Source of the DNA: Thermoleophilaceae bacterium
GTDB lineage: Bacteria; Actinomycetota; Thermoleophilia; Solirubrobacterales; Thermoleophilaceae
DNA: 64,000 nt
Direction of reading: 5' to 3'
NCBI GenBank assembly: GCA_035630015.1
Contig: DASQLM010000413.1
Location: forward strand, 47,519-111,518
Position numbers and translations under genes: made by a program. Shown piece after piece: positions 13,452 to 58,464 of the stretch. The notes under the pieces were generated by a model that was not told the origin of the DNA, ran no database searches, and was given only the letters and a program-made list of their open reading frames with translations. Each line of letters opens with the position of its first letter. Positions within the stretch are counted from its first letter, which is position 1.

Positions 13452-13502
13452 ACAGCCCTATACGAACGAGACAGGCGATTCCTTTTCCAGCATCATCGAG
13501 CA

Positions 13503-17511: not shown

Positions 17512-19875
17512 GTGCGGCTCAGGCGCGACAGATCGGGTCAACCCGAGCCCGAGCAGCCCACAGGCCGGCCGCCGGACGGGGACGACCAGGCGCCCGTCGA
17601 CGAGCCCGGCTCGGTCGACCTGATCGCCGGCCGGGACCCGGGCGACACCGTGAGCGTCGCCGAGCTCGAGGAACTGCAACAGGCCGAGCGCGAGGCGCGT
17701 GAGCTGCTCGAGCGGCGCCAGAACGAGATCCGCTCCGTCGAGCTGGCCCAGGCCCAGCGCCGGATCGAGGCCGCCGAGGCCGAGGTCGAGGCCGCCCGGG
17801 CCGAGGTCCAGACGGCGCGCTCGGAGGCCGAGGACTGGGTCGAGCAGGTACGCGAGGACTACGAGCGCCTGCAGCGGGAGCTTGAAGAGGAGCGGGCCCG
17901 GGCCGGCGAGCTCGAGCAGCAGCTGGCGGGCGAGTCCGAGGCCCTGGAGACCGAGCGCGCCGGGGGAGAGCAGACCCGGGGCGAGCTCGAGGACGTGCGC
18001 GGGCGGCTGGAGCGCCAGGAGGCCGAGGTCGAACGCCTGGAGGGCGAGCTGTCCGCGGAGCGCGAGCAGGCCCGCGAGCAGACTGAGAAGGCGGAGGCTG
18101 ACGCCCAGGAGGCGCGCGCACAGGCGGAGAACGATGTGTCCGAAGCGCGGTCCCAGGCCGAGGAGTGGGTCACGGAGGTCCGCGCCAGCTTCGACGAGCT
18201 GAAGGCCGAGCTGGACGCCGAGCGTGAGCGGGTCACGGACCTGGAGGCGCGGCTGGCCGCCGAGACCGAGGCGGCCGAGGCCGCCCGGGGCGAGGGCGAC
18301 CAGGCTCGCACCGAGCTGGAGCAGGCCCGGGCCGAGGCCCAGGAGCGCAGCGCCGAGGCCGAGCAGGCGCGGAGCCAGGCCGAGGCCGACCGGGCCAGGG
18401 CCCAGGACCTCGAGCAGCGGCTCGCGGCCGAGACCGAGGCGGCCGAGGCCGCCCGGGGCGAGGGCGCGGAGCTGCGCGACGAGCTCGAGCAGGAGCGCCA
18501 GGCCGGGCAGCGCCTGCATGGCGAGCTGCAGGAGGCCAAGGCGGCGGAGGAGGCGGCCCACAAGGAGGTCAAGCCCCGTGCCCAGCGCCGGATCACCGCG
18601 CTGGAGGAGGAGCTGGCAGCGGCCCAGGGTCAGACCGAGGAGCAGCGCGCCGCGCGCGAGCAGGCCGAACAGGCGGTGACCCGGACGGAGGCCGAGCGCG
18701 ACGAGGCCCTGGCGGGCCGGACGGAGGCGCAGGCCGAGACCGAGGAGGCCCGCCGCCAGGCCGAGGAGTGGGTCGAGTCGGTGCGCGAGAGCTACGACCA
18801 GCTCGGCCACGACCTGGAGAACGAGCAGGCGGCCCGGCAGGGCGCCGAGGAGACCGTCGCCCGCGTCGAGAGCGAGCGCGACGAGGCCCTGTCGCGGGTG
18901 GAGGCGGCCGAGCAGGAGCGCGAAGAGGCGCGCGCCCAGGCGCAGGAGATGGAGGCCGCGCTGCACGAGGAGCAGGCACGCGGGGGAGACGTGGACCAGC
19001 GCCTGGAGCAGGAGACCGCGGCGCTCGAGGCCGCCCGGGAAGAGCTGGCCCAGGCCCGCGAGGCCGCGGCCGCCCAGTCCGAGGCCCAGGAGCAGGCCGA
19101 CGCCCGGATCGCCGAGCTGGAGGGCGAGCTGGCCGCCGGCGAGCAGGCCCTGGCCGCCGAGCAGGAGGCCCGCGAACAGGATCGCGCGGAGGCCGACCGG
19201 CGCCGCGACGAATGGCGCGAGGTGGTGGCCGACGCCACCGCGCTGGCCGAGAACGAGAAGCACGAGCGCGAGCACATCGAGCAGCGCCTGCGGGCCATGG
19301 TCGAGCTGGAGGCCGATGCCCGCCGCTCACGCGAGCAGCGGATGAAGCAGCTCGACACCGCCATCCACGACGCCCAGCGCGACGCACGTGAGGCACGCGA
19401 GGAGCTGGAGAACGTGCGTGAGAGCCTGTCCCGGGGCGAGGGCCTGCCGGAGCCACGCGAGGCACGCCCGGACCCTGAGCAGGAGGAGGCGGAGCCCGAG
19501 GTCGAGCCCGACGACGACTACGAGCCCGAGCCGCTGGTCAGCACCAACGGCCATCACGAGGGCCCCGAGCACGACGAGGAGCCCGAGCCGATGCCGCGCC
19601 GGCCCGCCGGCGACCGGCCGCCCCGGATGGCGCCCACACCGCCGCCCGTCGAGCCACAGGGCATCCTGGGCCGCCGCCGCCGGCGCCGTTCGCGCGGCGC
19701 CGAGGCGTGCTCGGCCTGCGCCCGCCCACAGCCGGACGCGAAGCCCGCCGAGCTGGAGCGCTTGGGCTGGGTGGACAACGGCCAGGTCGGCCTGTGCCCC
19801 GAGTGCCAGGGCCAGGGCTGGCACCTGCTGGAGGGCTCGACCGAGCCCTACCGGCGCCTGTCGGACCGGCCCTAG
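17512..19875 (+). CDS. Giant cytoplasmic coiled-coil protein with a conserved C-terminal CxxC-25-CxxC motif (paralog 2). Function unknown.
   Basis: 787 aa with a GTG start 3 nt after the paralog-1 stop. It starts MRLRRDR and repeats AE[ED]WV-x-x-VR modules. The C-terminus reads CSACA ... GW ... LCPECQGQGWHLL ... YRRLSDRP. Confidence 0.75.
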   Translation: MRLRRDRSGQPEPEQPTGRPPDGDDQAPVDEPGSVDLIAGRDPGDTVSVAELEELQQAEREARELLERRQNEIRSVELAQAQRRIEAAEAEVEAARAEVQTARSEAEDWVEQVREDYERLQRELEEERARAGELEQQLAGESEALETERAGGEQTRGELEDVRGRLERQEAEVERLEGELSAEREQAREQTEKAEADAQEARAQAENDVSEARSQAEEWVTEVRASFDELKAELDAERERVTDLEARLAAETEAAEAARGEGDQARTELEQARAEAQERSAEAEQARSQAEADRARAQDLEQRLAAETEAAEAARGEGAELRDELEQERQAGQRLHGELQEAKAAEEAAHKEVKPRAQRRITALEEELAAAQGQTEEQRAAREQAEQAVTRTEAERDEALAGRTEAQAETEEARRQAEEWVESVRESYDQLGHDLENEQAARQGAEETVARVESERDEALSRVEAAEQEREEARAQAQEMEAALHEEQARGGDVDQRLEQETAALEAAREELAQAREAAAAQSEAQEQADARIAELEGELAAGEQALAAEQEAREQDRAEADRRRDEWREVVADATALAENEKHEREHIEQRLRAMVELEADARRSREQRMKQLDTAIHDAQRDAREAREELENVRESLSRGEGLPEPREARPDPEQEEAEPEVEPDDDYEPEPLVSTNGHHEGPEHDEEPEPMPRRPAGDRPPRMAPTPPPVEPQGILGRRRRRRSRGAEACSACARPQPDAKPAELERLGWVDNGQVGLCPECQGQGWHLLEGSTEPYRRLSDRP
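18259..18298 (+). repeat. 40-nt perfect direct repeat, copy 1, inside coiled-coil gene 2
   Basis: gccgagaccgaggcggccgaggccgcccggggcgagggcg, encoding AETEAAEAARGEG. An identical copy lies 168 bp downstream. Confidence 0.9.
18427..18466 (+). repeat. 40-nt perfect direct repeat, copy 2, inside coiled-coil gene 2
   Basis: Identical 40-mer to 18259-18298. The offset of 168 bp equals 56 codons, so the repeat is in frame. Confidence 0.9.
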
Positions 19876-21288: not shown

Positions 21289-21373
21289 CGGTAGCTTCCC
21301 CCTGGTGCCCGGCGGCCGAAATCTCACGGCGCGCGCGCTTGCCCACAACGCCGTGATCCGCCGGTCGGCCGGC

Positions 21374-22030
21374 ATGGCCCACCGTGGAGGCGCGGTGGAG
21401 TGCCCGGCCTGTGGCCACGGCTACCGGAGCTTCTTCTCGGCGCTGAACGACCAGTGCTGGTGGTGCGGGTCGCTGCCGCGCCACCGCCAGATCGCGCTGC
21501 TGATGAGCGCACGGCCCGAGCTGACCTCACCCGGGATGAGCATCCTGCACATCGCGGCGGAGGCATCGGTGCGCCCGCTGCTGCCTGCCGATGCCGACTA
21601 CGTGGCCGGTGACCTCGATCCCCGGGGCGAGATGGTTGCGCTGGACGTCACGGACCTGCCGTTCGAGGCCGAGCGCTTCGACGCGGTGATCTGCAACCAC
21701 GTGCTCGAGCACGTGCCCGACGACCGGGCCGCGATCTCCGAGCTGCACCGGGTCCTCCGGCGCGGCGGCTGGGGCATCCTCATGACCCCGATCCTCCGCG
21801 AGGTCACCGATGAGGACCCCACGGTCACCGACCCGGGCGAACGCGCCCGCCGCTGGGGCCAGTCCGACCACGTTCGCCGGTACGGGTGGGACTACGTGGA
21901 TCGCCTCCGCGCCGCCGGCTTCGAGGTCGAGGTCCTGAGCGACTACCCGCCCGACCTGGTGCGGCGACACGTGCTCACGAACAACCAGGGGTTCGTCGAG
22001 CCACTGTTCCTGGTCCGGCGCCCGGACTGA
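21374..22030 (+). CDS. Class I SAM methyltransferase (Methyltransf_11-like) with an N-terminal CxxC...CxxC zinc-ribbon
   Basis: CPACGHGYRSFFSALNDQCWWCGSLPRHR, then ILHIAAE ... DVTDLPFEAERFDAVICNHVLEHVPDD ... LRRGGWGILMTP. Start is the ATG at 21374 or the GTG at 21305. Paralog of 32438..33136. Confidence 0.75.
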   Translation: MAHRGGAVECPACGHGYRSFFSALNDQCWWCGSLPRHRQIALLMSARPELTSPGMSILHIAAEASVRPLLPADADYVAGDLDPRGEMVALDVTDLPFEAERFDAVICNHVLEHVPDDRAAISELHRVLRRGGWGILMTPILREVTDEDPTVTDPGERARRWGQSDHVRRYGWDYVDRLRAAGFEVEVLSDYPPDLVRRHVLTNNQGFVEPLFLVRRPD

Positions 22031-22036
22031 GCGGGG

Positions 22037-24187
22037 TCAGGAAGCGCCGGACAGGTCGATGGCCGCGCCCGTCTCGGCCGAACGCAGCGCCGCCAGCGTC
22101 ACGGCCATCGAATCCAGCGGGTCGGGTCCCACGGCAGCCCCGCCCCTGACGGCCACCTCGTGCAGGTGCTCGAACTGGGCCCGGTGGCCCTTGTCGCGTG
22201 GCGCCGGCACGGGTGTGCGGCGGCGGCCGGGGGAGGGGATCAGCGTCTTGAAGTCGTCGATGGCGCCCGAGCGGCCGTCGCAGTGGGCCTCCACGTACTC
22301 CTTCTGCAGCGGCCGGCCGCCGTCGGCCGCGTAGAACACCGTGGCCAGCCCGCCGCCGGGGAAGTCCAGCGACACGGAGAAGGACTGGCCGGCCGCCAGC
22401 GGCTCGCCGGGCGCGGCGCGCATCGTCGTGTTCACGCGCCGCGGCAGCTCGCCCGCGAACCAGCAGGCGAAGTCGATGAAGTGGCAGCCCTCGCCCAGCA
22501 GGCGCCCGCCGCCGTCGTCGGGGTCGTTCAGCCAGTGGTCGGCGGGCAGCGTGCCCGCGTTCACGCGGAACAGCAGCTCGAACGGCCGGCCCGGCCGGTG
22601 GACCTGCCGGCGCAGCTCCAGGGCGAGCGGGGCGTGGCGGCGGTTGAAGCCGGCCAGCAGAGGGAGGCCCGACGAGGCCACGGCCGCGCGCAGCGCCTCC
22701 AGCTCCGCCGCGTTCAGGCACGGGGGCTTCTCGACGAAGACCGCCTTGCCGGCCTCGAGCGCGCGCACCGCCAGGTCGGCGTGGGTCGCGTGGCGGCTCG
22801 CGATGGCCACGACGTCCACGTCGCCCGCCGTCAGGAGCTCGTCCACGCCGGCCACTCGATCGAACCCGAACTGCTGCGCGGCGCCGTGGGCCGAGCGCCC
22901 CGTGGCGCTGGCCACCGCGGTCAGCGCGAAGCCGGCCGCGTCCAGGCCCGGGATCATCGTGCCCTGCGCGAAGCTGCCGGCGCCGATGACCCCGACGCGG
23001 CTGCCGGTCGCGCGGTGGGCGCCCGCACGCGCTCGGCCGGCCGCCAGGGGAGCTGCATCGTCCAGCGGCGTGCTCTCGTAGGTCACGACGATGCCCAGCG
23101 GTGACTGCTCGTCGCCGGCGAGCCGCTCGTAGGCCTGGTCGGCATCGTCGATCGGAACCCGATCGGTGATCAGCGAGCCGACCTGGATGCGCTTCGTGGC
23201 GACCAGGGCGAGGAAGGCCGCGATGTTGCGCCGCTCGGTCCAGCGCACGTAGCCGATCGGGTAGTCCAGGCCTCGCTCCTCGTACTCCTTGTCGTAGCGG
23301 CCGGGCCCGTAGGAGCGGGACAGGCGAAGGTCCAGCTCCTTGCCGTAGTAACTCGCCCGCTGGAGCTCCAGCCCGACGTCACCGACCACCACCACCCGGC
23401 CGCGATCGCGGCACAGGCGGGCGGCCAGCTCGACCGGGTCGGAGGAGGGAGTGGCAGCCGTGATCACCACGGCGTCGCATCCGGCGGCCGCGGCCGGCGG
23501 GTCGCCCTCACCCAACTGCTCGCGCGTGAACGCGTGGTCGGCGGCGCCGTCCGCCAGGGACCGGGCCACCAGCTCCCGGTCGAGGTCGATGCCCACCACC
23601 GAGCATCCCGCGGCCCGGAGCAGCTGGCCGCTGAGCTGGCCGACCAGCCCGAGCCCGATGACCGCCACCCGCTCGCCGAGACGGGAGTCGGCCTGGCGCA
23701 CGCCGTGCAGCGCGATGCTGCCCACGGTGCCGAAGGCTCCGTGCTCGAACTCCAGGCCGTCGGGCAGGGGGGCGCACAGGTTGGAGGGCACATGCACGAT
23801 CTCGGCGTGCACCGCGTAGTCGGCGCCCGCGCAGGCCACGCGATCGCCGGGCACCAGGTCACGCACGCGGTCACCCACCGCCAGGACCACCCCCGCGCAC
23901 GAGTAGCCCATGGCCGACGGCTGCTCGAGCCGGGTCCGCACCGCCCGGACGGTGTCGGCCAGGCCGTCCCGGCGGGCCTTGTCCACGACCTGGCGCACCT
24001 GGTCGGGGCGCGAGCGCGCCTTGCCGATCAGGCTCTGGCGCCCGGTCTGGACCTTCGTGCGCTCCGTTCCCGCGCTGAGCAGGCTGGCGCGGACGTCGAC
24101 CAGCACGCCGTCCGGCGTCAGGGCCGGGGCGGGTATCTCGATCACGTCGATCCGGCCATCACGGAGCCGCTGGGTTATCTGCTTCAC
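22037..24187 (-). CDS. Bi-domain oxidoreductase: N-terminal medium-chain (zinc-type) alcohol dehydrogenase-like domain fused to a C-terminal Gfo/Idh/MocA domain
   Basis: 716 aa. The N-terminal half has GYSCAGVV, VAVIGLGLVGQL (Rossmann) and VVITAATPS. The C-terminal half has VGVIGAGSFAQG, AIASRHATH and VFVEKPP (EKP motif). GTG start. Confidence 0.85.
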   Translation of the reverse strand: MKQITQRLRDGRIDVIEIPAPALTPDGVLVDVRASLLSAGTERTKVQTGRQSLIGKARSRPDQVRQVVDKARRDGLADTVRAVRTRLEQPSAMGYSCAGVVLAVGDRVRDLVPGDRVACAGADYAVHAEIVHVPSNLCAPLPDGLEFEHGAFGTVGSIALHGVRQADSRLGERVAVIGLGLVGQLSGQLLRAAGCSVVGIDLDRELVARSLADGAADHAFTREQLGEGDPPAAAAGCDAVVITAATPSSDPVELAARLCRDRGRVVVVGDVGLELQRASYYGKELDLRLSRSYGPGRYDKEYEERGLDYPIGYVRWTERRNIAAFLALVATKRIQVGSLITDRVPIDDADQAYERLAGDEQSPLGIVVTYESTPLDDAAPLAAGRARAGAHRATGSRVGVIGAGSFAQGTMIPGLDAAGFALTAVASATGRSAHGAAQQFGFDRVAGVDELLTAGDVDVVAIASRHATHADLAVRALEAGKAVFVEKPPCLNAAELEALRAAVASSGLPLLAGFNRRHAPLALELRRQVHRPGRPFELLFRVNAGTLPADHWLNDPDDGGGRLLGEGCHFIDFACWFAGELPRRVNTTMRAAPGEPLAAGQSFSVSLDFPGGGLATVFYAADGGRPLQKEYVEAHCDGRSGAIDDFKTLIPSPGRRRTPVPAPRDKGHRAQFEHLHEVAVRGGAAVGPDPLDSMAVTLAALRSAETGAAIDLSGAS

Positions 24188-24197
24188 GAGTAGGTCC

Positions 24198-25253
24198 TCA
24201 CTGGGCCTCGGGCCCGCCCGCGCACGGTCCTCGCGTGCACAGCGTCATTCGCAGGAGTTGCAGATGCTGCCATGGGAACCCGGCCAGGGCGTCGGCCGGG
24301 GTGCCGGAAAAGTACCCGTCGCCGCCCCGGTAGGGATCGCGGCCCGTGCGGGTCGGGTCCTCACCGAAGAACGCCGTGGCCTTGTGGGTGCGATCGCGGA
24401 CGACGATGCCGTAGCGCTGGGCGGCCCGGGCCATGATGCGGCCCAGGCGGGTCAGGCGCAGGGACTCGACATCCAGCGCCGGGTCCAGCCGCAGCCGGGC
24501 GCCCTCGGGAAGCGTGGCGAGCCCGCCCGTCCCGTCGCTGCGCTGGGCGGGCCAGGAGAACGTCCCCGCGCGGGCGTCGGGGACGTTCAGGGCCAGCGCG
24601 TGGTCGATCCGGCCACGGCGCAGCTCGGCAAGGGTCATCACCCCGCCCACCACGGAGATGCTCGAGGCCGTGGAGCCCCAGTTGTGGCGGCTTCCCGCAT
24701 AGTGGCCGGGGCTCCTGGAGACGCCGCGCAGCACGCCGCCCCAGCGGGCCTCCCATCCGCCGGCGCCGCGGCGGGCCCGCCACAGCTCCCAGAGGGTGTC
24801 CGTGGCGGGCTGGTGGACGGTCAGGTGCCCGTCGCTGCCCGCGGCGGGGCGCGCGCCCGGAGGGATTGGCACCCCGCGCGCCAGCTCGGCAGCCAGCTCC
24901 CGGCCCCACGGGCCCGTTCGCAGGGCCACGGGCACGAGCGGTTGGCGCCGGGGCACGCGGTAGATCGGCGTGCTCGAGTGGTCGGTCTGGATCCAGGGGC
25001 CGGTCCCCTCATCCTGCTCGCGCCGGATCTGGGTCCGGAACGCGTCCATCAGCGGGCCCGAGGCCGTATCGAGCGGCGCGTCACGGGCCAGGCGCCGGTT
25101 CAGGAAGCTGGAGGGGGCGAACAGCGCGGGCCGGGCGTAGGCCGGCTCCGGAGCATCGTCCTCCTGGTCCTCCGGCGCCCCGAGCCAGAGCAGGGTGACC
25201 ACGGCCGCCGCGGCGACGACCACCACCGCGACCGCCGCCCGCTTCGCGCTCAT
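24198..25253 (-). CDS. Secreted or membrane-anchored protein of unknown family, paralog A of three
   Basis: ORF 24198..25415, started at the ATG at 25253 (MSAKRAAVAVVVVAAAAVVTLLWLG, a signal/anchor segment). Motifs shared with paralogs B and C are STPIYRV, GVPIP, GSDGHLTV-QPATDTLWE-W, WGG, WGSTASS, ELRRGRIDHALA, SWPAQR-DGT, ARLRLDP, AAQR-G-VVRDRT and FPW--LQLL ... LC ... PC. Confidence 0.7.
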   Translation of the reverse strand: MSAKRAAVAVVVVAAAAVVTLLWLGAPEDQEDDAPEPAYARPALFAPSSFLNRRLARDAPLDTASGPLMDAFRTQIRREQDEGTGPWIQTDHSSTPIYRVPRRQPLVPVALRTGPWGRELAAELARGVPIPPGARPAAGSDGHLTVHQPATDTLWELWRARRGAGGWEARWGGVLRGVSRSPGHYAGSRHNWGSTASSISVVGGVMTLAELRRGRIDHALALNVPDARAGTFSWPAQRSDGTGGLATLPEGARLRLDPALDVESLRLTRLGRIMARAAQRYGIVVRDRTHKATAFFGEDPTRTGRDPYRGGDGYFSGTPADALAGFPWQHLQLLRMTLCTRGPCAGGPEAQ

Positions 25254-25275
25254 TGCGGGGTCGCGGCCGGAATCC

Positions 25276-25289
25276 GATGCATATGCATC
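25276..25289. promoter_or_regulatory. Perfect 14-bp palindrome GATGCATATGCATC (candidate operator)
   Basis: Self-complementary over all 14 positions and AT-richer than its surroundings. It lies 23 bp upstream of the paralog-A start, inside the longest non-coding gap of the window. Confidence 0.35.
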
Positions 25290-25316
25290 CGGTCCGCCAG
25301 GTATGAACTGGACACG

Positions 25317-25523
25317 ATGCGCGTCGGGATCGAGGTCTTCGCGCTGCTGGGGCTCGCGTGGCTCATGGTCGATCTCGTCCTGGTCGGGGCGGCTCTGCTC
25401 GGGGCTCGGGCGCATGACCGGCGCACAGCGCGGCAGGTCGATCCGCCGCCGTTCGTCGCATCGATCGCCACGCTACGGGCTGCCGGCGCGCACCGTCGCA
25501 GTTGGCGGAACCGGCGCATGTAG
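25317..25523 (+). CDS. Possible 68-aa single-pass membrane peptide (speculative)
   Basis: An in-frame ATG within the tail of ORF 23910..25523 gives MRVGIEVFALLGLAWLMVDLVLVGAALLGARAHDRRTARQ..., one hydrophobic helix followed by a basic tail. There is no homology evidence, and it could be a GC-driven chance ORF. Confidence 0.2.
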   Translation: MRVGIEVFALLGLAWLMVDLVLVGAALLGARAHDRRTARQVDPPPFVASIATLRAAGAHRRSWRNRRM

Positions 25524-25665
25524 CGCTCCGGCATGGCAGACTGCGCTGGCGAATTCCCGTACCTCGCCGTACGGTGTTCGGTGGCAGGAGTGATCAACCA
25601 GGGGGCGACGGCCGGGAACCGCCGCCCCGGATGACGGTCCAGAGGTCTGCCACAGGGACAAAGGA

Positions 25666-27174
25666 ATGTCAGGAAGGGGCAGGGCGACTCAAGACGTGCA
25701 AGGCGAATCCACACCTTCAGTGGTGGCGGGAATGCCACCCCTCACCGGGGTAGTCGACGAGCTGGCGCCGCCGGACCGGGCGCCCGCGACCCCCGAGGCC
25801 GGGGAGGGCGCTCGTCCGGCGCGGACGCTGAACCTCGATCACCGCTACCGGCGCGCGCTGGCGCTGGCCGACGTGCTGGCCTGCGCGTTCGCGGTCACGC
25901 TGTGCATCGGCCTGCTCGGCGCGGGCGACCAGGTCTCGGCCGGGGCGCTGGTATCGCTGCCGCTCGTGGTCGTGATCAGCAAGCTCCTGGGCCTGTACGA
26001 CCGTGACGAGCTCGTGCTGCGCAAGTCGACGCTCGAGGAGGCGCCGCGGCTCTTCCAGCTGGCCACGCTCTGCACGCTCGTCCTGTGGATAGCGGAGAGC
26101 CCGCTCAAGCTCGGTGAGCTCGGCGGGGACCAGGTCCTGGCGTTGTGGATCGTCCTCCTCCTGTCCCTGGTGGGCGCGCGGGTCGCGGCCCGCGGGCTGG
26201 CCCGGCGCAGCACGCCTGCCGAGCGCTGCCTCCTGCTGGGCGACCCGGAGGCGTGCGAGCGCGCCCGGCGCAAGATCGATGGGAGCGCGACGGTGAACGC
26301 CGAGGTCGTGGCCCAGATCACATCGGTGCGGATCGGCGAGACCGAGGTGCCGCTCGAGATGCTCGCCCAGCTGGCCGCCGACCACGAGATCCAGCGCGTG
26401 GTGATCGCGCCGCGCAGCACGGACCACGGCGACGTGCTCAACCTGGTCCGGGCGGTCAAGTCCATCGGCCTGAACGTGAGCGTGCTGCCCCGGCTGCTCG
26501 AGATCGTCGGGTCGTCCGTGGTCGTGGACGACATCGAGGGCCTGCGCGTCCTGGGCGTCGCGCGGTTCGGGCTGACGCGGTCCTCGCGCCTGGTCAAGCG
26601 CAGCCTGGACGTGGGCGGGTCATCCGTCGGGCTGCTGCTCCTGGCCCCGCTGCTGGTCGTCATCGCCGTGGCGGTCAAGATCGGCTCGCGCGGGCCCGTG
26701 CTGTTCCGCCAGCCCCGGATCGGCCGCGACGGGCAGACCTTCTCGGTGTACAAGTTCCGCACGATGGTCGTGGAGGCGGAGGACCTCAAGGAGGCCCTCC
26801 TGTCCCAGAACGAGGCGGAGGGCCTGTTCAAGATCGCCGACGACCCGCGCATCAACCGGGTCGGCCGGGTGCTGCGCCGCGCGTCCGTGGACGAGTTGCC
26901 CCAGCTGTTCAACGTGCTCAAGGGCGAGATGAGCCTGGTGGGGCCCCGCCCGCTGGTCCGCGAGGACGACTCGCAGATCGAGGGCTGGGACCGCCACCGC
27001 CTGCACCTGACGCCCGGGATGACCGGGCCGTGGCAGATACTGGGGCCCGCGCGGCTGCCCCTGAACGAGATGGTCAAGCTGGACTATCTCTACGTGGCCA
27101 CCTGGTCGCTGTGGGGCGACATAAAGATCCTGGTGCGCACGTTCGCGTTCGTGCTGGGCCGCCAGGGCCTCTGA
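25666..27174 (+). CDS. Large polyprenyl-phosphate glycosyl-1-phosphate transferase (WbaP/CpsE type), copy 2
   Basis: 502 aa with the same architecture as 14079..15635. Contains YRRALALADVL, KLLGLYDRDELVLRKSTLEEAP, LFRQPRIGRDGQTFSVYKFRTM and DELPQLFNVLKGEMSLVGPRP. An alternative ATG at 25732 is possible. Confidence 0.9.
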   Translation: MSGRGRATQDVQGESTPSVVAGMPPLTGVVDELAPPDRAPATPEAGEGARPARTLNLDHRYRRALALADVLACAFAVTLCIGLLGAGDQVSAGALVSLPLVVVISKLLGLYDRDELVLRKSTLEEAPRLFQLATLCTLVLWIAESPLKLGELGGDQVLALWIVLLLSLVGARVAARGLARRSTPAERCLLLGDPEACERARRKIDGSATVNAEVVAQITSVRIGETEVPLEMLAQLAADHEIQRVVIAPRSTDHGDVLNLVRAVKSIGLNVSVLPRLLEIVGSSVVVDDIEGLRVLGVARFGLTRSSRLVKRSLDVGGSSVGLLLLAPLLVVIAVAVKIGSRGPVLFRQPRIGRDGQTFSVYKFRTMVVEAEDLKEALLSQNEAEGLFKIADDPRINRVGRVLRRASVDELPQLFNVLKGEMSLVGPRPLVREDDSQIEGWDRHRLHLTPGMTGPWQILGPARLPLNEMVKLDYLYVATWSLWGDIKILVRTFAFVLGRQGL

Positions 27175-27181
27175 GGCGCGC

Positions 27182-28306
27182 TCAGCGAGAGCAGGGCGCG
27201 CGGCGGCAGAGCTGCATCGGCAGCAACTGGAGGCGGTCCCACGGGAACCCGGCGAGCACGCGCGATGCGCTCGAGCGCCCGAACAGCCCGCCGACGCCGG
27301 TGTAGGGCGACCCGCCGGTCGGCGGGGACTCGAGGAAGAACTGGGCGGACACGCGGGTGCGATCGCGGACGATCATGCCGTGGCGCTGGGCGGCCTCGGC
27401 CAGCATGCGGGCCACGGGGTGGAGCCCCAGCGCGGCCACGTTCAGGCCGGGATCCAGCCGCAGGTGGGCGCCGAGGGGGAGGCAGTCGGGGCGGCTCGAC
27501 GTACCGTCGGTGCGCTGGGCCGGCCACGCGAAGACGCCACGGCACGGGTCGGGGACGGCCATCGCCAGCGCGTGGTCGATGCGGCCCCGGCGCAGCTCCT
27601 CGACCGTCACCGTGCCGGCGGCCACCGGGAGGCTGCTGGCGGTGGAACCCCACGTCCATCCGTCCTTGCCGGACAGCCCGGGCCAGGCGTTGCCCGTGTA
27701 GTACCCGGGGTTGCGCGACGCGCGTCGCATCACGCCGCCCCAGCTGGCGTGCCAGCCGTCGGCCCGGCGGTGGGCCCGCCAGAACTCCCAGAGGGTGTCG
27801 GTCGCGGGCTGGTAGACGCTCAGGTGCCCGTCGGATCCCACGGCCTGAGCGGCGCCGTCCGGGATCGGCACACCACCCGCCAGGGCCTTCCTGAGGGCGT
27901 TGCCCCACGAACCGGTCTTCAACGTGACACGCACCCGTGGAGTCAGCGCGGGCACGCGGTAGATGGGTGTGCTGAAGGTCCCCGCGGCCAGGTTGGGAGG
28001 GCCCCCGCCCAGCGCCGCCGGCAGCGCTCGCCGGAGCCGGATCAGATCGGTCAGGGCCTGCACCCGCGCGCCCGAGGTCGGGTCCAGTCCGGCGCCTTGG
28101 GGAAGCGTCCGGTTCCAGACGCTGTCGGCCGCGAACATCCGGCTGCGAGCAGGGCGGGGGCCGTCGGCCGGGCCTCTGACCTTCTCCGGCAGGGCCTTCC
28201 AGCTCTCGCGCTTGGCGGCATGCGCAGGGGCGGGAGTCGCGACCGCAGCCGCGGTAACGACGAGCGCGAGCAGCCAGGGTGAGAAGCGGGGCAGGAGGGC
28301 GGGCAC
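27182..28306 (-). CDS. Secreted protein of unknown family, paralog B
   Basis: 374 aa with a GTG start. The signal peptide is PALLPRFSPWLLALVVTAAAVATPAPAHA/AK. It shares a 29-aa identical run, VYQPATDTLWEFWRAHRRADGWHASWGGV, with paralog C. Confidence 0.75.
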   Translation of the reverse strand: MPALLPRFSPWLLALVVTAAAVATPAPAHAAKRESWKALPEKVRGPADGPRPARSRMFAADSVWNRTLPQGAGLDPTSGARVQALTDLIRLRRALPAALGGGPPNLAAGTFSTPIYRVPALTPRVRVTLKTGSWGNALRKALAGGVPIPDGAAQAVGSDGHLSVYQPATDTLWEFWRAHRRADGWHASWGGVMRRASRNPGYYTGNAWPGLSGKDGWTWGSTASSLPVAAGTVTVEELRRGRIDHALAMAVPDPCRGVFAWPAQRTDGTSSRPDCLPLGAHLRLDPGLNVAALGLHPVARMLAEAAQRHGMIVRDRTRVSAQFFLESPPTGGSPYTGVGGLFGRSSASRVLAGFPWDRLQLLPMQLCRRAPCSR

Positions 28307-28321
28307 GGCCGTAGCGCGAAC

Positions 28322-29380
28322 CTACCGCAGGGAGCGGCGTCCGGGGGAAGGTGCGCAGGGGGAGCTGCTGCACAGATGCAGGGGCAGCAGCTGGAGCCGG
28401 TCGAACGGGAACCGGGCCAGCATCCGCCAGGAGGGGACGCCGCGGTAGAGCCCCCGCGCGCCCGTGTAGGGAGAGCGGGTCCGGGGCGAGGGCGCCTCCA
28501 GGTAGAACGCCAGTGAGCCACCCGTCCTGTCACGCACGATCATCCCGTGGCGCTGTGCGGCCTCGGCCAGGATGCGGGTGACGCGAGGAAGCCGGAGCCG
28601 GTCCAGGTTCACCCGAGGGTCCAGCCGCAGGCGAGCGCCGGCCGGGATGCAGTTGCGTTTCGAGGACGTCCCGTCGGTCCGCTGGGCTGGCCATGAGAAG
28701 ACCTTGCGGCAGGGGTTGGCCACGGCGACGGCCAGCGCGTGGTCCACCCGGCCGCGACGCAGTTCCGCGCGCGTCACCGTGCCGGCGGCCACCGGGAGGC
28801 TGGTGGCGGTGGAGCCCCAGTTCCAGCCGTTGGTGCCGGACAGCCCCGGCCAGGCGCCGGCGGTGTAGTAGCCGGGGTTGCGTGAGACGCCGCGGATCAC
28901 GCCGCCCCAGCTGGCGTGCCAGCCGTCGGCCCGGCGGTGGGCCCGCCAGAACTCCCACAACGTGTCGGTCGCGGGCTGGTAGACCGTCATGTGGCCGTCG
29001 GATCCACTGGCCGCCGCGGCCGCTTCCGGGATCGGCACACCACCGGCCAGGGCCGCCCGCAGGGGGTCGCCCCAGCGGCCGGTGTCCAGGGTGAGGCGGA
29101 CCCGCCGTGCGTTGGCCGGGACGCGGTAGAGAGGGGTGCTGTAGCGGTTGGCCTGGATGTTCGGGTACAGGTTCCGCCGCGCGATCGTGCCCCGGATCTC
29201 GCCGGTCAGCGCCCGTACGCGCTGCCGTGAGGTGGGGTCGAGCGGAGTATTCGCCGAGAGGCGCGCGTTCCAGATGCTGTCGGCCGCGAACAGCCGGTCC
29301 GCGGGGGCGGCATCGGCGGCTTGGGGCGCGGCCACGCAGACCAGCGCCAGCGCCAGGGCGGCGCGGCGAAACGACCGCAT
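28322..29380 (-). CDS. Secreted protein of unknown family, paralog C
   Basis: ORF 28322..29401. The ATG at 29380 gives a typical signal peptide, MRSFRRAALALALVCVAAPQAADA. It carries the same conserved blocks as paralogs A and B. Confidence 0.75.
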   Translation of the reverse strand: MRSFRRAALALALVCVAAPQAADAAPADRLFAADSIWNARLSANTPLDPTSRQRVRALTGEIRGTIARRNLYPNIQANRYSTPLYRVPANARRVRLTLDTGRWGDPLRAALAGGVPIPEAAAAASGSDGHMTVYQPATDTLWEFWRAHRRADGWHASWGGVIRGVSRNPGYYTAGAWPGLSGTNGWNWGSTATSLPVAAGTVTRAELRRGRVDHALAVAVANPCRKVFSWPAQRTDGTSSKRNCIPAGARLRLDPRVNLDRLRLPRVTRILAEAAQRHGMIVRDRTGGSLAFYLEAPSPRTRSPYTGARGLYRGVPSWRMLARFPFDRLQLLPLHLCSSSPCAPSPGRRSLR

Positions 29381-29487
29381 GTGGGAGCGGGGACGGGACA
29401 CTCGTGTCCCATCGGCCGGTAGGCGCCCGCCCTCCAGCCCGGCCGCCCGCGTTTGGACGCCTGTCCACCGGGCCGGCCAGGCGGGTT

Positions 29488-30261
29488 ATGGTGCGCCCGG
29501 TGAGCGGGCTGCACGTGGTCATCCTGGCTGCCGGGAAGGGGAGCCGGCTCGGCGCCCTTGCGGCCGACCGGCCCAAGTGGCTGCTCGACGTCGGCGGCAG
29601 CCCGATCGCCGATCGGCAGATGGCGGCGGTGGCCGGCGCCCGCGAGCGCGACGCGGCCTCCCTGGCCTCGGTGCGTGTGGTGACCGGGCACGCCGACTCG
29701 GCGGTGGCGGCCTACCTGGGCGCCGAGGACGATGTCCAGCTGGTGCACAACCCCCGCTACGCCGATCTGAACAACTGGTACTCGGTGCTGGTGGCGCTGC
29801 GTTCCATCCCCGACGCCGGCGGCGGCGTGGCGGTGATCAACAGCGACCTGTTCGCCCCGGGCCCGTGGATCCAGGCCTTCCTCGAGTCGGCCGCGTCCAC
29901 CGAACACGAGGCGCTGATCGCGGTCGACATGGAACGGCAGCTGACCGACGAGTCGATGAAGGTCTCCGCCTCGGGGGGCGAGCTGGAGGCCATCGGGAAG
30001 GTGGGGATCGAGGACCCGGTCGGCGAGTACGTGGGCATGCTGATGGCCCGAGGCGGGGCGCTGGCCCGCTTTCGCGAGACGCTCGAGGGGTTCGAGGGCG
30101 TGGCCGAGCACGCGGACGAGTGGTACGAGCGGGGGGTGGGGCTGACCGCCGCCGAGGGAGTGCCCTGGACGGTCTGGCCCACGCTGGACACCGGCTGGGT
30201 CGAGATCGACGACGACGGCGACCACGCCGCCGCCGAGCGGCTGGCCGCCGCGGAGGCCTGA
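29488..30261 (+). CDS. Sugar- or polyol-phosphate nucleotidyltransferase (NTP_transf_3 / LicC / IPCT-like). Candidate CTP:glycerol-phosphate cytidylyltransferase.
   Basis: Distal part of ORF 29107..30261, from the ATG at 29488. Contains HVVILAAGKGSRLG ... KWLL ... NWYSVL ... AVINSDL ... WVEIDD. Substrate is inferred from the neighbouring genes only. Confidence 0.7.
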   Translation: MVRPVSGLHVVILAAGKGSRLGALAADRPKWLLDVGGSPIADRQMAAVAGARERDAASLASVRVVTGHADSAVAAYLGAEDDVQLVHNPRYADLNNWYSVLVALRSIPDAGGGVAVINSDLFAPGPWIQAFLESAASTEHEALIAVDMERQLTDESMKVSASGGELEAIGKVGIEDPVGEYVGMLMARGGALARFRETLEGFEGVAEHADEWYERGVGLTAAEGVPWTVWPTLDTGWVEIDDDGDHAAAERLAAAEA

Positions 30262-30264
30262 CCG

Positions 30265-31320
30265 GTGCGGGAGCGCACCATCGCCATCCCCCGCCTGCTC
30301 AACGTGGGCGCGGGGTGCCTGTCGGCGCTGGAGCCGCTGCTGCGCGAGGCCGCCTTCGACCTGCACGCGGTCTGCGTGGGGGCGGGGGAGGGTCCCTCGG
30401 TGCAGTTCGCGGACGCCGCCGTCGAGGGACTTCGCGGAGCGGGGATCGAGCCACTGGAGGTCCACGGGCTGTCGGGCCGGCTTGATCAGGCCGCGGAGCT
30501 GGCCGCCCGGGTGATCGAGGACGGCGTAACCCTGCTGGTGGCGGTCGGCGGCGGGCGCGTGATCGACACCGTCAAGCTGGCGGCCGCGCGGACGGGCACG
30601 GACCTGGTCAGCGTCCCCACGGCGATCTCCCACGACGGCATCAGCTCGCCGGTGGCGTCGCTGGTGCCCAAGGACGGCCCGCGCCAGTCCTACGCCGCGG
30701 CGATGCCCGGCGGCATCATCGTCGACATCGACGTGATCGGATCGGCGCCGCCGCGCACGCTGCGCGCCGGGGTCGGCGACCTGGTCAGCAACCTGACCGC
30801 GCTCATGGACTGGCGGCGCGCGGACGCCCTCGGGCACGACCGCTACGACGCCTTCTCGGCCATGATCGCTGAGCACGCGGCCCGGCCGGTGCTGGACATC
30901 GAGGAGCTCTCCACGGCCGCCAGCCACGAGCTCGTGGCGAAGGGGCTGCTGATGAGCGGGCTCGCGATGGCGGCGGCCGGTACCAGCCGGCCGTGCTCGG
31001 GCGCGGAGCACCTGATCAGCCACGGACTTGACGAGCGTCTGGGCGACCGGGCGGCCATGCACGGCGAGCAGGTGGCCCTGGGCACGCTGGTGGCCGCCGA
31101 GGCGCACGGCTCGCCGATGCGGGCGACGCTCGTGGAGTTCTTCGACCGCCTGGAGCTGCCGTGCCGGCCCGGCCAGCTGGGCATCGGCGACGCTGAGTTG
31201 GAGGACGCGATCCTGGGCGCTCCCGCAACCCGCCCGGACCGCTACACGATCCTGACCGACGTGCTGGAACAGGACGGCGACGTGCCCGCGCTGCTCGAGC
31301 GCGCGTTCGCGAAGGGCTAG
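30265..31320 (+). CDS. Iron/zinc-dependent alcohol dehydrogenase superfamily, sn-glycerol-1-phosphate dehydrogenase-like (EgsA/AraM type)
   Basis: 351 aa with a GTG start. Contains LLVAVGGGRVIDTVKLAA, VPTAISHDGISSP, GVGDLVSNLTALMDW, SGAEHLISHGLD and HGEQVALGT. The D/H/H metal-ligand pattern and spacing match G1P dehydrogenases as I recall them. Confidence 0.65.
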   Translation: MRERTIAIPRLLNVGAGCLSALEPLLREAAFDLHAVCVGAGEGPSVQFADAAVEGLRGAGIEPLEVHGLSGRLDQAAELAARVIEDGVTLLVAVGGGRVIDTVKLAAARTGTDLVSVPTAISHDGISSPVASLVPKDGPRQSYAAAMPGGIIVDIDVIGSAPPRTLRAGVGDLVSNLTALMDWRRADALGHDRYDAFSAMIAEHAARPVLDIEELSTAASHELVAKGLLMSGLAMAAAGTSRPCSGAEHLISHGLDERLGDRAAMHGEQVALGTLVAAEAHGSPMRATLVEFFDRLELPCRPGQLGIGDAELEDAILGAPATRPDRYTILTDVLEQDGDVPALLERAFAKG

Positions 31321-31325
31321 GCCGG

Positions 31326-32441
31326 ATGGGGTTGCTCGCCCGGGTGCCCGGGCTCAGGCAGGTCCCGCAGGTGCTCGGCCCCGTGCTGGACGACGTGATC
31401 CTGTTCGAGAGCTGGCGTGGGCAGTACTCGGACAATCCGCGGGCGATCTCGGAGGAGCTGCACGGGCGCGGCACGCACCACCGCCATGTCTGGGTGATCG
31501 ACCCGGCTCTGGCCCCCGGGGTGCCGGACTGGGTGGAGACCGTCACCCCGGGCAGCCGCGGGCACCTGGCGATGATGGGGCGCGCCGGCCACCTGGTCAC
31601 GAACACGACGGTGCTCGGGTTCCACCACAAGCGCCCGGGCACCCGCCTCATGCAGACCTGGCACGGCACGCCGCTCAAGCGCATCGGCTTCGGGATCCCG
31701 CGTGACGGCTCCCGCGCGGCGCGCCAGGCGGTGGACACCCTGCGCCACAACGTGAAGCGGTGGGACCTGCTCCTGTCGCCGAACCGGTTCAGCACGCCGA
31801 TCTTCCGCGAGGCGTTCGAGTACGAGGGGCCGATCGAGGAGACCGGCTACCCCCGCAACGACCTGCTGGTGGGCCCTCACGGCGACGCGGTGCGCGAGCG
31901 GACCCGATCGGCGCTCGGCATCGCCCCCGGCCAGCGGGTGGTCCTGTACGCGCCGACCTTCCGCGACTCGGTGCAGTTCGCGCTCGAGCCGCAGGTCGAC
32001 CGGCTGGCCCAGGAGCTGGGCGAGTCGCACGTGGTGCTGCTGCGCACCCACAAGGTCGATGCCGGGGTCGCGCGCACGGGCCGCTTCGTCGACGTGTCCG
32101 CCTACCCCGACAACCGCGAGCTCTACCTGGCGGCCGACGTGCTGGTCACCGACTACTCCTCGGTCATGTTCGACTTCGCGGTCACGGGCAAGCCGATGGT
32201 GTTCTTCACCTACGACCTGGCCGACTACCGCGACCGCGCGCGCGGCTTCTATTTCGACCTCGAGGCGGAGGCGCCGGGGCCGCTCGTGGCGACGGCCGAG
32301 GAGCTCGCCGAGGCGGTTGCCGGGGCCGACGCGGATGCGCCCCGCCTCCGGGAGGCCTATCAGTGCTTTGCCGAGCGCTTCTGCCACCTGGAGGACGGGC
32401 GGGCGTCGGCCCGCGTGGTCAACCTGCTGCTGGCGGGCTAG
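31326..32441 (+). CDS. CDP-glycerol glycerophosphotransferase family protein (TagF/TagB-like), copy 1
   Basis: 371 aa containing FESWRGQYSDNPRAI, WHGTPLKRIGF, GYPRNDLL, VLYAPTFRD, DVLVTDYSSVMFDFAVTGKPMVFF and RGFYFD. Confidence 0.85.
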   Translation: MGLLARVPGLRQVPQVLGPVLDDVILFESWRGQYSDNPRAISEELHGRGTHHRHVWVIDPALAPGVPDWVETVTPGSRGHLAMMGRAGHLVTNTTVLGFHHKRPGTRLMQTWHGTPLKRIGFGIPRDGSRAARQAVDTLRHNVKRWDLLLSPNRFSTPIFREAFEYEGPIEETGYPRNDLLVGPHGDAVRERTRSALGIAPGQRVVLYAPTFRDSVQFALEPQVDRLAQELGESHVVLLRTHKVDAGVARTGRFVDVSAYPDNRELYLAADVLVTDYSSVMFDFAVTGKPMVFFTYDLADYRDRARGFYFDLEAEAPGPLVATAEELAEAVAGADADAPRLREAYQCFAERFCHLEDGRASARVVNLLLAG

Positions 32442-33136
32442 GCGGCCCTACGGCAGACGTACAGGTCGTTGCGGAGCGGGTCCGGGCGCGGTACGAGGCC
32501 GTAGCGCTCGATCGAACCGTCGGGTAGGTCGTAGGCGTACTCGGAGACCGTGACCTCGAAGCCGGCGCCCCCGAGCCGGTCGACCAGGTCGCGGCCGTAG
32601 ACGCGTACGTGGTCGTCCTGCGAGAACAGCCTCAGGCGCTCGGCCGGGTCGGTTACGGACGGGTCCTCGAAGGTGGTGGCCATGTCGTAGTTCACCGGCG
32701 TCTGGACCACCACGGTCCCACCGTCGGCCAGCACGCGGCCCATCTCGGACATCGCCGCGGCGTCGTCGGCGACGTGCTCGAGGACGTGGCTGCACAGGAC
32801 CAGGTCGAAGCGGCCGTCCTCGAACGGGAGATCCGTGATGTCGGCCTTCACCTCGGCCCGTGGGCTGAACAGGTCGGCCGACACGTATTCCCCGGCGGCG
32901 TCGCGGAGGGGCCGCTCGAGCGCGATCTCGGGCGCGAAGTGCAGCACCCGCAGGGCACCCTCCGGTAGTGGGGTCTCGGCGTTCAGGTAGAGCCAGAGCA
33001 CCCGGTGGCGCGGGCGCGATCCGCACTTCGGACAGTCCGCGCTGAAGGGCCGCGAGGCAACCGTCTTGAAGCGCCGGAAGCGGCCGCCGCAGCACGGGCA
33101 CTCGTATTTCCGCCCCCAAGACCGCAGGTGGCCCAT
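32438..33136 (-). CDS. Class I SAM methyltransferase with an N-terminal zinc-ribbon, paralog of 21374..22030
   Basis: ORF 32438..33217, with the ATG at 33136 preferred (MGHLRSWGRKYECPCCGG ... CPKCGSRPRHR). Contains DITDLPFEDGRFDLVLCSHVLEHVADD and SQDDHVRVYG. Confidence 0.75.
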   Translation of the reverse strand: MGHLRSWGRKYECPCCGGRFRRFKTVASRPFSADCPKCGSRPRHRVLWLYLNAETPLPEGALRVLHFAPEIALERPLRDAAGEYVSADLFSPRAEVKADITDLPFEDGRFDLVLCSHVLEHVADDAAAMSEMGRVLADGGTVVVQTPVNYDMATTFEDPSVTDPAERLRLFSQDDHVRVYGRDLVDRLGGAGFEVTVSEYAYDLPDGSIERYGLVPRPDPLRNDLYVCRRAA

Positions 33137-33140
33137 CCGG

Positions 33141-33863
33141 TCAGGCAGGGCGCTCGAGTCGCACGACGCAGTACTGGGTGCCCTCGCCCACCACGTGGGC
33201 GACCTCCAGGCCGGCATCGCTCGCGGCTTGCCTCAGGTCGGGCATCGACACGGCGGAGCCGAGCCAGTTCGGGTTGCCCAGGCCACTCGCGCCCTTGTGG
33301 TTGCCGCGCCCGGCGCGCCACCACATCCGCGCCCGCCGGAGCGGGGAGGGGGAGTGCACCGCGGGATCGGTGGACACCTGGAATGCGCTCCAGCCTCCGG
33401 GACGCAGGATGCGGCCCATCTCGCGAACGTATCCGAGCGTGATGGCGGCCTCGGGCACGTGCTGGAAGACCACGTGCGACACGCAGGCGTCGGCAGAGCT
33501 GGAGTCGATGCCCGCGAGCGAGGTGCCGTCCCCGTGCAGCCAGGTCACTCCCTCCAGGGAGGGGTTGAGCTCACGGGCCTGCTGGAGCATCTCGGCCGAC
33601 ACGTCAAGGGCTCGGACGGTGGCGGCACGCGCGGCGAGCCCGCGTGTCAGGCGTCCGAGCCCGCAGCCGATCTCCACCACGTCATCGCCCGGCCCGACTG
33701 CGGCCCCGGCCATGTTCAGCAGCGTGGCCAGGTCCTCCTCGCCCTGGGCCCAGAAGCGGTCGGTGTCGGGGTTCTCGAAGTCCAGCCGGCTGTCGACGAA
33801 GAAGTACGCGTTCTCCTTGGCGCGCTCGTCCCAGAAGCTCGCCATCTCGTCCCCGGTGCCCAT
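33141..33863 (-). CDS. Class I SAM-dependent methyltransferase
   Basis: 240 aa containing VVEIGCGLGRLTRGL (motif I), ALDVSAEML, ADACVSHVVFQHV and LRPGGW. Confidence 0.8.
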   Translation of the reverse strand: MGTGDEMASFWDERAKENAYFFVDSRLDFENPDTDRFWAQGEEDLATLLNMAGAAVGPGDDVVEIGCGLGRLTRGLAARAATVRALDVSAEMLQQARELNPSLEGVTWLHGDGTSLAGIDSSSADACVSHVVFQHVPEAAITLGYVREMGRILRPGGWSAFQVSTDPAVHSPSPLRRARMWWRAGRGNHKGASGLGNPNWLGSAVSMPDLRQAASDAGLEVAHVVGEGTQYCVVRLERPA

Positions 33864-33910
33864 GCGTGGGTCGATGGTACGTGTTGCATCGCCCCCGGGG
33901 TCGCGGGCTT

Positions 33911-33916
33911 TAGGCT
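33911..33916 (+). promoter_or_regulatory. Candidate -10 hexamer TAGGCT, 9 nt upstream of the ATG at 33926
   Basis: A TANNNT pattern inside a 62-bp divergent gap. The opposite strand has TACCAT (33874-33879) 10 nt before the minus-strand ATG at 33863. Confidence 0.3.
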
Positions 33917-33925
33917 GCGCCGTTC

Positions 33926-39632: not shown

Positions 39633-39696
39633 GGCGACCCGCCGTGGGCGGGTGGGGATAGTAACGCGGTGGGTCTCGTATGCTGCCCAGCGACCG

Positions 39697-58434: not shown

Positions 58435-58464
58435 CGGTTCGAGTCTACGGTGGGGGCCGTGACG

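Follow-up and report, generated by a model that had tools for sequence, protein, structure and literature searches.

PslG, PelA, BcsZ and AlgL cleave or trim the polymer in the exopolysaccharide loci that encode them. These enzymes (PslG, glycoside hydrolase [GH] family GH39; the hydrolase domain of PelA, GH166; BcsZ, GH8; AlgL, polysaccharide lyase [PL] family PL5) are exported and are encoded in the polymer cluster, often by core assembly genes. Phage tails are where depolymerases and receptor-binding modules occur, and the tailspike depolymerases (parallel beta-helix, pectate-lyase-like) are tail-borne cutters of host capsule or exopolysaccharide. Here we describe three paralogous genes, A, B and C, in a surface-glycan cluster of a Thermoleophilaceae bacterium (contig DASQLM010000413.1, positions 47,519 to 111,518). 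The whole of this 64-kb stretch is referred to as the window, and all coordinates are counted from its first nucleotide. The products of A, B and C are likewise exported and encoded in a polymer cluster, but they have no sequence or fold relation to PslG, PelA, BcsZ or AlgL, they are present in three copies rather than one, and their activity is predicted only. By analogy, locus-encoded exopolysaccharide glycanases and phage tail depolymerases appear to be their functionally closest counterparts, and by sequence and fold A, B and C belong to neither.

We think there is about an even chance that A, B and C are extracytoplasmic enzymes of a new fold that cleave or remodel glycan and act on the polymer of their own locus. 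We favor this reading because the proteins are exported and reside in a glycan locus, because other members of the family are fused to carbohydrate-binding modules (CBMs), because an aromatic-rich module keeps a conserved set of carboxylate, His, Asn and Gln residues, and because homologs occur in phage tails. An earlier note on this DNA had proposed an undescribed family of polysaccharide-processing enzymes. The undescribed family, the export, the glycan loci and now a link to phage tails all speak for that proposal, but the conserved site that it named is in part a feature of one subfamily.

Open reading frames (ORFs) were called on the 64-kb window, the three proteins were aligned, and the window was scanned with a hidden Markov model (HMM) of the family. 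The genes in question and their immediate neighbors are:

24198-25253, minus strand: paralog A, 351 amino acids (aa), ATG at 25253; probable signal anchor plus module.
27182-28306, minus strand: paralog B, 374 aa, GTG start; second gene in the C-B tandem.
28322-29380, minus strand: paralog C, 352 aa, ATG at 29380; the paralog whose structure was modelled.
25666-27174, plus strand: Bac_transf priming sugar-phosphate transferase (E 8e-62), bracketed by the paralogs.
22037-24187, minus strand: bi-domain oxidoreductase (Zn-ADH plus GFO/IDH/MocA), co-oriented with A across a 10-bp gap.

The relatedness of A, B and C is far beyond chance. B and C are 53% and 51% identical to A and 66.5% identical to each other, 134 columns of the three-way alignment are invariant, and the family HMM detects all three at E 1e-138 to 1e-143; it finds no fourth copy in the window. 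The open frame of A extends upstream to 25415, its furthest possible start, and C has an alternative GTG start at 29401. C and B lie in tandem, 15 bp apart, and the stop codons of B and of the convergent priming transferase are separated by 7 bp. A and the same transferase are a divergent pair, and A and the oxidoreductase downstream of it probably share a transcript. Scanning 21900-29800 for promoters and terminators gave zero sites, which is uninformative at the 73% G+C of this organism. The earlier note had described three paralogs in this layout, and the ORF list bears out both the genes and their arrangement. The motif blocks that it listed are all present and colinear, with minor corrections to two of them: the W/F position of the S-x-W-N motif is Leu (L51) in A, and the AAQR block reads G-[MI]-[IV]-VRDRT. 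The hydrophobic N-terminal segments, the terminal LCxxxPC and the extra Cys pair that it assigned to B and C are likewise there. The pair is C224/C244 in C and C255/C275 in B, and A is without it.

The family to which these proteins belong is absent from the domain databases that we searched. A Pfam scan of A, B and C at E<=10 gave sub-threshold noise only (best E 0.01, 16 bits against a cutoff of 27), and an NCBIfam scan at E<=10 gave zero matches. No model in Pfam-A or NCBIfam, including those for GHs, PLs, carbohydrate esterases (CEs), peptidases and domains of unknown function (DUFs), was matched at its gathering score, and the Pfam profile for the LytR-CpsA-Psr (LCP) ligases, LytR_cpsA_psr, matched none of the three. 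Likewise, no Pfam domain covers the module in 74 diverse family members. Searches of PDB sequences with 3- and 51-sequence profiles (hmmsearch) reached a best E of 1-1.8, and a match to V-ATPase subunit E from the PDB profile search was discarded as spurious. Full-text literature searches found no description of the module. An exhaustive profile search recovered 7,460 clusters (50% identity) at E<=1e-3, 4,061 at E<=1e-10 and 1,198 at E<=1e-30. A word-indexed search gave more than 1,238 matches, none of them functionally named, and the sole Pfam match among these was an extensin-like repeat. All named members are called "hypothetical protein" by NCBI and other naming sources. Judging from these searches, the family is large and old.

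The module is a single globular unit of about 310 aa. An AlphaFold2 model of C, built from a 51-sequence alignment, is a single domain with a mean predicted local distance difference test score (pLDDT) of 88.2 and a predicted template modelling score (pTM) of 0.87. A model of the distant member P0276, which is 22-24% identical to the window proteins, has a pLDDT of 84.4 with a core above 90. Both models combine short strands with four or five helices in a mixed alpha/beta structure. Foldseek against the PDB gave a best E of 0.9 for the C model and 1.3 for the P0276 model, with query-normalised template modelling (TM) scores of at most 0.12; as modelled, the fold is absent from the PDB. The claim of an undescribed family thus holds against Pfam, NCBIfam, PDB sequences and PDB folds, and the Foldseek check that had been proposed with it found no PDB relative for either model. 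The sole recurring feature was a noise-level match from each model to a carbohydrate-active double-psi beta-barrel protein (a group that includes barwin, cerato-platanin, RlpA/MltA, GH45 and expansins): cerato-platanin 3sul at E 6.8 with C and barwin-like 4jp6 at E 4.8 with P0276, with target-normalised TM scores of 0.22 and probabilities of at most 0.02. We take this modelled similarity as a lead only and not as a detected relationship.

The module also has relatives in phage proteins. Foldseek against the BFVD viral models gave five strong matches, the best being a minor tail protein of Gordonia phage Guillaume (E 8.7e-18, TM 0.60, 317 columns). Among the others is a Caudovirales protein that carries the annotation "Parallel beta-helix repeat". 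This label recalls the tailspike depolymerases, but the module is mixed alpha/beta rather than a beta-helix, and no PDB beta-helix was matched. The PHROG 17388 profile ("minor tail protein") detects A, B and C at E 6.5e-9, 1.8e-13 and 5.8e-11, and the match spans only profile positions ~317-426 of 702, which is the shared module. In the other direction, the family HMM detects five phage proteins at E 1e-16 to 4e-23, and tblastn places the module in 48 Gordonia phages and one Microcystis phage. A search seeded with the phage module gave 19 matches, and no cellular match was functionally named. In the phage proteins, which are 625-749 aa long, the module follows an N-terminal region and a coiled coil and precedes a beta-rich C-terminal domain. 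A Pfam scan of the five phage homologs found no domain, and the label "glycosylhydrolase" on Stormageddon gp18, which is an annotation and not a test, therefore has no support that could be reproduced here.

On sequence and modelled structure, the phage and bacterial modules are truly homologous. The PHROG 17388 proteins (for example Guillaume gp9, Getalong gp35 and Stormageddon gp18) share with A, B and C the module motifs F-A-A-D-S-I-W-N, G-[ST]-D, H-A-L, W-P-A..D, P-x-G and Q-x-Y-G...D. In contrast to them, the window proteins consist of a signal peptide and the module alone, without the N-terminal, coiled-coil and C-terminal regions, and they sit among glycan-assembly genes. There are no phage genes in the window, and we rejected the idea that the locus is a prophage remnant. 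The PHROG 17388 module, itself uncharacterised, is the sole family to which A, B and C belong, without its full architecture or virion context.

The positions of the module genes in the phage genomes vary. In Getalong, gp35 closes the tail-gene block beside an O-acyltransferase gene, and it overlaps the end of this convergent gene, gp36 (L004 4981-8231). Phage acyltransferases often modify host surface glycans, and gp36 fits a glycan receptor for the module-bearing phages. In Guillaume (L001 5044-7293) and LuckyLeo (L005 3182-5059), the module gene directly follows the portal gene, and in Guillaume it precedes the capsid maturation protease. This location is unusual for a tail gene, so the annotation "minor tail protein" may be uncertain.

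Conservation was scored in C numbering over 74 representatives that are mutually at most 50% identical, and then with phage and distant members added. P116, D128, G170, G189, H214, P231, D236, G237, G248, R252, A274, Q276, G279 and P325 are invariant in the 74 representatives, and D139, E143, R234 and D284 are at least 90% conserved. With the phage and distant members, the invariant or near-invariant polar core is N38, D128, E206, H214, D236, Q276 and D284, and N38 is invariant across the superfamily, phage proteins included. The corresponding sites are:

28529-29035, minus strand: conserved core of C, residues 116-284.
28997-28999, minus strand: codon of D128 in C (D141 in A, D159 in B).
28763-28765, minus strand: codon of E206 in C (E210 in A, E237 in B).
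28739-28741, minus strand: codon of H214 in C (H218 in A, H245 in B).
28673-28675, minus strand: codon of D236 in C (D240 in A, D267 in B).
28553-28555, minus strand: codon of Q276 in C (Q279 in A, Q307 in B).
28529-28531, minus strand: codon of D284 in C (D287 in A, D315 in B).
29267-29272, minus strand: W37-N38 pair of the F-A-x-D-S-x-W-N motif in C.

The earlier note had read D-G-H, D-H and R-x-D-G residues as an active or metal site. D128, H214 and D236 of that set are kept family-wide, but H130, D213 and R234 are confined to the close subfamily. We postulate that the carboxylates D128, E206, D236 and D284, together with H214, N38 and Q276, form a candidate active site. The family conservation analysis showed no conserved Ser or Cys nucleophile, no HExxH and no multi-His metal motif. 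A zinc peptidase of the LAS type (H130-x8-D139 plus H214) was considered and rejected, H130 being lost in phage and distant members. The LAS/M23 zinc motifs (HxxxD, HxH or H..D..H) are absent, H214 being the sole superfamily-wide His, and the Foldseek match to LytM was at E 5.7. All four Cys are also close-subfamily features, and a disulfide-dependent function as a family trait was rejected on this ground.

The same residues bear on whether the module might bind glycan without cutting it, either as a lectin or anchor on the bacterial surface, which would hold the polymer in place or order it, or as a receptor-binding domain of phage tails. The module is Trp-rich (13 W per 358 consensus positions; about 3% in A, B and C). 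In the phage minor tail proteins it lies between a coiled coil and a C-terminal beta domain, and some members are fused to long immunoglobulin (Ig)-like arrays typical of adhesins, all of which would suit a binding role. However, the sites of lectins and receptor-binding proteins usually diverge with the ligand, whereas here an Asn/Asp/Glu/His/Gln set is constant from soil Actinomycetota to cyanophage at 20-30% identity, and every residue of it is retained in three paralogs of one locus. Members that already carry CBMs (P0184, CBM6 plus CBM60) would need no second binding module. We consider a purely binding role quite unlikely for the family.

The enzyme reading places these proteins outside the cytoplasmic membrane, and their N termini are consistent with this. 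Export was called with a hydropathy heuristic and not with a dedicated signal-peptide predictor. By this measure B and C have cleavable-looking signal peptides with cleavage contexts of the Ala-x-Ala type: that of B ends in APAHA (...APAHA|AK), and that of C is MRSFRRAALALALVCVAAPQAADA, with the context ...AADA|AP. An RR motif in the C signal peptide is possibly a signature of export by the twin-arginine (Tat) pathway. The N terminus of A looks more like a signal anchor. Across the family, a hydrophobic segment begins the protein in 168 of the 195 members with a complete N terminus, and distant members carry a type IX secretion system (T9SS) sorting domain or RTX repeats as export domains. An extracytoplasmic location is thus supported for the family by its sequences.

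The genomic context of the family points to surface glycans. Genes were called in 78 genome loci, and the nearest non-family neighbor on each side was taken at 74 non-redundant loci, giving 138 proteins. The closest genome matches are metagenome-assembled genomes (MAGs) of Solirubrobacterales and other Thermoleophilia. The survey, made with subfamily-specific DNA patterns, is dominated by Thermoleophilia MAGs, so that shared ancestry inflates the following counts (Pfam assignments):

GT2: 20 of 138 neighbors.
GT1/GT4: about 11 of 138 neighbors.
Bac_transf: 8 of 138 neighbors.
NTP_transferase: 6 of 138 neighbors.
S-adenosylmethionine (SAM) methyltransferases: 6 of 138 neighbors.
Wzy_C: 3 of 138 neighbors.

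Glycan-assembly genes make up approximately one third of the 138 neighbors (the categories overlap slightly); in a typical genome they are a few percent. A Bac_transf homolog lies within 10 kb at 19 of 78 loci and within 500 bp of the family gene at 8 of 75, six of these on the opposite strand as in the window. The close pairs (L006, L010, L017, L046, L061 and three more) are in Solirubrobacterales MAGs. The pairing suggests selection for the arrangement, because it recurs at merely 37-79% transferase identity. A same-strand homolog of the ADH/GFO oxidoreductase is found no more than 10 kb from the family gene at 13 of 75 loci, and two to four paralogs lie within 20 kb of each other at 31 of 78. 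One MAG locus is syntenic with the window and has a single family copy, convergent on the priming transferase; the triplication is therefore lineage-specific. The locus of the distant member P0276 also has GT2, GT4 and PIG-L genes nearby. The association with glycan loci, which the earlier note had suggested surveying in homologs, holds across them, and it is strong, though some loci depart from it.

Longer members are fused to CBM6 plus CBM60 (P0184), to the ConA-like domain Laminin_G_3, or to arrays of up to 20 Ig-like domains. These fusions are typical of surface carbohydrate-active enzymes. In a Pfam census of 74 longer members the N-terminal extensions were mostly domain-free, and they look like low-complexity linkers.

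One fusion points elsewhere. P0123 carries a Peptidase_M23 domain, and the module could be a peptidoglycan hydrolase of autolysin type that opens the wall for machinery exporting or attaching the polymer, with the phage copies acting as lysins on the tail that breach peptidoglycan at infection. Phages of Gram-positive hosts commonly carry wall hydrolases on their tails. Carriers of the module span Actinomycetota, Bdellovibrionia, Acidobacteriota and a cyanophage, and the T9SS-tagged member suggests Bacteroidota too; the exopolysaccharides of such hosts differ and peptidoglycan is common to them, and a residue set that stays constant across differing glycan loci fits a common substrate. On the other hand, we found no similarity in fold or profile to muramidases, amidases, LAS/M23 or NlpC/P60 enzymes or lytic transglycosylases. 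The fusion census turned up CBM6/CBM60 and ConA-like domains instead of LysM, SH3 or PG_binding, the neighbors are glycosyltransferases and priming transferases rather than genes for cell division or wall synthesis, and Getalong has a separate lysin B near its tail genes. We therefore regard a peptidoglycan substrate as unlikely.

The window itself bears on what the substrate might be. In 43 window proteins scanned (not every window ORF), nearly all genes are for surface-glycan assembly. They include two Bac_transf priming transferases, two Wzy_C proteins, two Wzx-type flippases, GT2 and GT4 glycosyltransferases, a WecG/TagA transferase, a UDP-GlcNAc 2-epimerase, NeuB, a DegT aminotransferase, an Asn-synthase-like amidotransferase and an ECF sigma factor. 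A teichoic-acid-like module comprises two TagF-like CDP-glycerol glycerophosphotransferases, the WecG/TagA enzyme, a nucleotidyltransferase and a glycerol-1-phosphate-dehydrogenase-like Fe-ADH_2, and the last two precede one of the TagF-like genes. No conventional glycoside hydrolase, lyase, esterase or LCP ligase is among these 43 proteins, which do not cover every ORF, and A, B and C are therefore the sole candidates among them for an extracytoplasmic processing step.

That step need not be glycan cleavage. A, B and C could be extracytoplasmic transferases or phosphodiesterases that act on the lipid- or wall-linked end of the polymer, for example by releasing it from undecaprenyl pyrophosphate, ligating it to the wall in place of an LCP enzyme, or cleaving glycerol- or sugar-phosphate. 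The two TagF-like enzymes, TagA/WecG and the CDP-glycerol module indicate a teichoic-acid-like polymer with phosphodiester bonds, and a substrate moiety common to such pathways would explain the invariance of the active site. The 8 of 75 loci with an undecaprenyl-phosphate priming transferase less than 500 bp away, mostly on the opposite strand, are in keeping with this, as is the lack of an LCP ligase, but that lack applies to the scanned ORFs only and is not proof. Moreover, one His with carboxylates is unlike the multi-His/Asp metal motifs of known phosphodiesterases, and a ligase role leaves the occurrence in phage tails unexplained. We find this role improbable.

Under the glycan-processing reading, B and C would be secreted and A membrane-anchored, all working outside the cytoplasmic membrane on the surface glycopolymer built by the surrounding Wzx/Wzy- and TagF-type cluster. 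Cleavage or trimming there might control chain length, release polymer from the cell or clear stalled product. The three paralogs may differ in linkage or substrate preference. With the same chemistry, the phage tail copies would attach to the surface glycan of the host and cut a way through it. More tentatively, and with somewhat less confidence than an even chance, we suggest that the module is in all its carriers the catalytic part of a new family of carbohydrate-active enzymes whose fold the PDB lacks, and that it would serve self-processing in bacterial loci and host-glycan penetration in phage tails.

Several points weigh against an enzyme acting on exopolysaccharide. The neighbors of P0270 are GGDEF signalling genes, those of P0279 are unrelated genes, and at approximately three quarters of the loci no Bac_transf occurs within 10 kb. 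The locus-survey counts, dominated by Thermoleophilia, are inflated by shared ancestry. The Peptidase_M23 fusion of P0123 points to peptidoglycan and not to exopolysaccharide. The module in phage tails could be purely receptor-binding, and the clustering of the conserved polar residues in three dimensions is an assumption. Lastly, the type of reaction (hydrolase, lyase, transglycosylase or phosphodiesterase) cannot be inferred by homology, because there is no structural relative.

If the module is catalytic, it represents a new enzyme family and fold for polysaccharide processing, founding a new glycoside hydrolase or lyase family with thousands of members missed by current annotation. In the glycan clusters of Thermoleophilia and of other little-studied soil bacteria it would take the place of the "missing glycanase", and several thousand "hypothetical" proteins would gain a function. 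It would also explain an unannotated tail-protein module in dozens of sequenced Gordonia phages and define a new class of phage depolymerase. This would matter for the host range of phages and for depolymerase discovery tools, whose training sets consist of known folds. Because its proteins are secreted and made of one small domain, the family is easily tested.

B and C share the identical run of 29 aa that the earlier note had reported, VYQPATDTLWEFWRAHRRADGWHASWGGV (28901-28987 in C, 27734-27820 in B). Nucleotide identity in this stretch is 0.94. The run may be a local gene-conversion patch between the tandem genes, because 27 of its 29 codons are identical, compared to roughly half elsewhere (the same codon at about 33-83% of identical residues per 30-column window in the rest of the two genes). 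Paralog A diverges at two sites:

25101-25103: L51 of A, Trp to Leu in S-x-W-N.
24570-24572: internal Cys pair missing in A.

With L51, no internal Cys pair, and an anchor instead of a cleavable signal peptide, A may have a diverged, membrane-tethered role.

Elsewhere in the window, which has a G+C content of about 73%, one sigma-factor gene stands next to the first priming transferase (14079-15635):

13311-13991, plus strand: ECF-type sigma factor, directly upstream of priming transferase 1.

This gene may encode a dedicated regulator of the cluster. Two plus-strand ORFs, 15694-17508 (604 aa) and 17512-19875 (787 aa), sit between priming transferase 1 and the UDP-GlcNAc 2-epimerase gene. They have no convincing Pfam family (the sole match in the 787-aa ORF is a sub-threshold 17-residue repeat), AT skews of +0.41 and +0.43, and the highest G+C of the window. 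The syntenic MAG locus L084 has no-Pfam genes of 967 aa and 580 aa at the corresponding position. We suspect that the two ORFs may be chain-length or export components of an unrecognised type.

The teichoic-acid-like module is at 29500-32441, 53523-54665 and 59688-60458, in a Thermoleophilia-type genome, and its Fe-ADH_2 hints at sn-glycerol-1-phosphate rather than 3-phosphate chemistry. The Asn-synthase-like amidotransferase (56545-59664, minus strand; 1,039 aa) has an unassigned N-terminal extension of about 440 aa. At least nine SAM methyltransferase genes, including one for a TylF-type O-methyltransferase, are at 21305-22030, 32438-34651, 37233-38021, 38892-41974 and 46184-46882; so many in one cluster imply a heavily methylated polymer.

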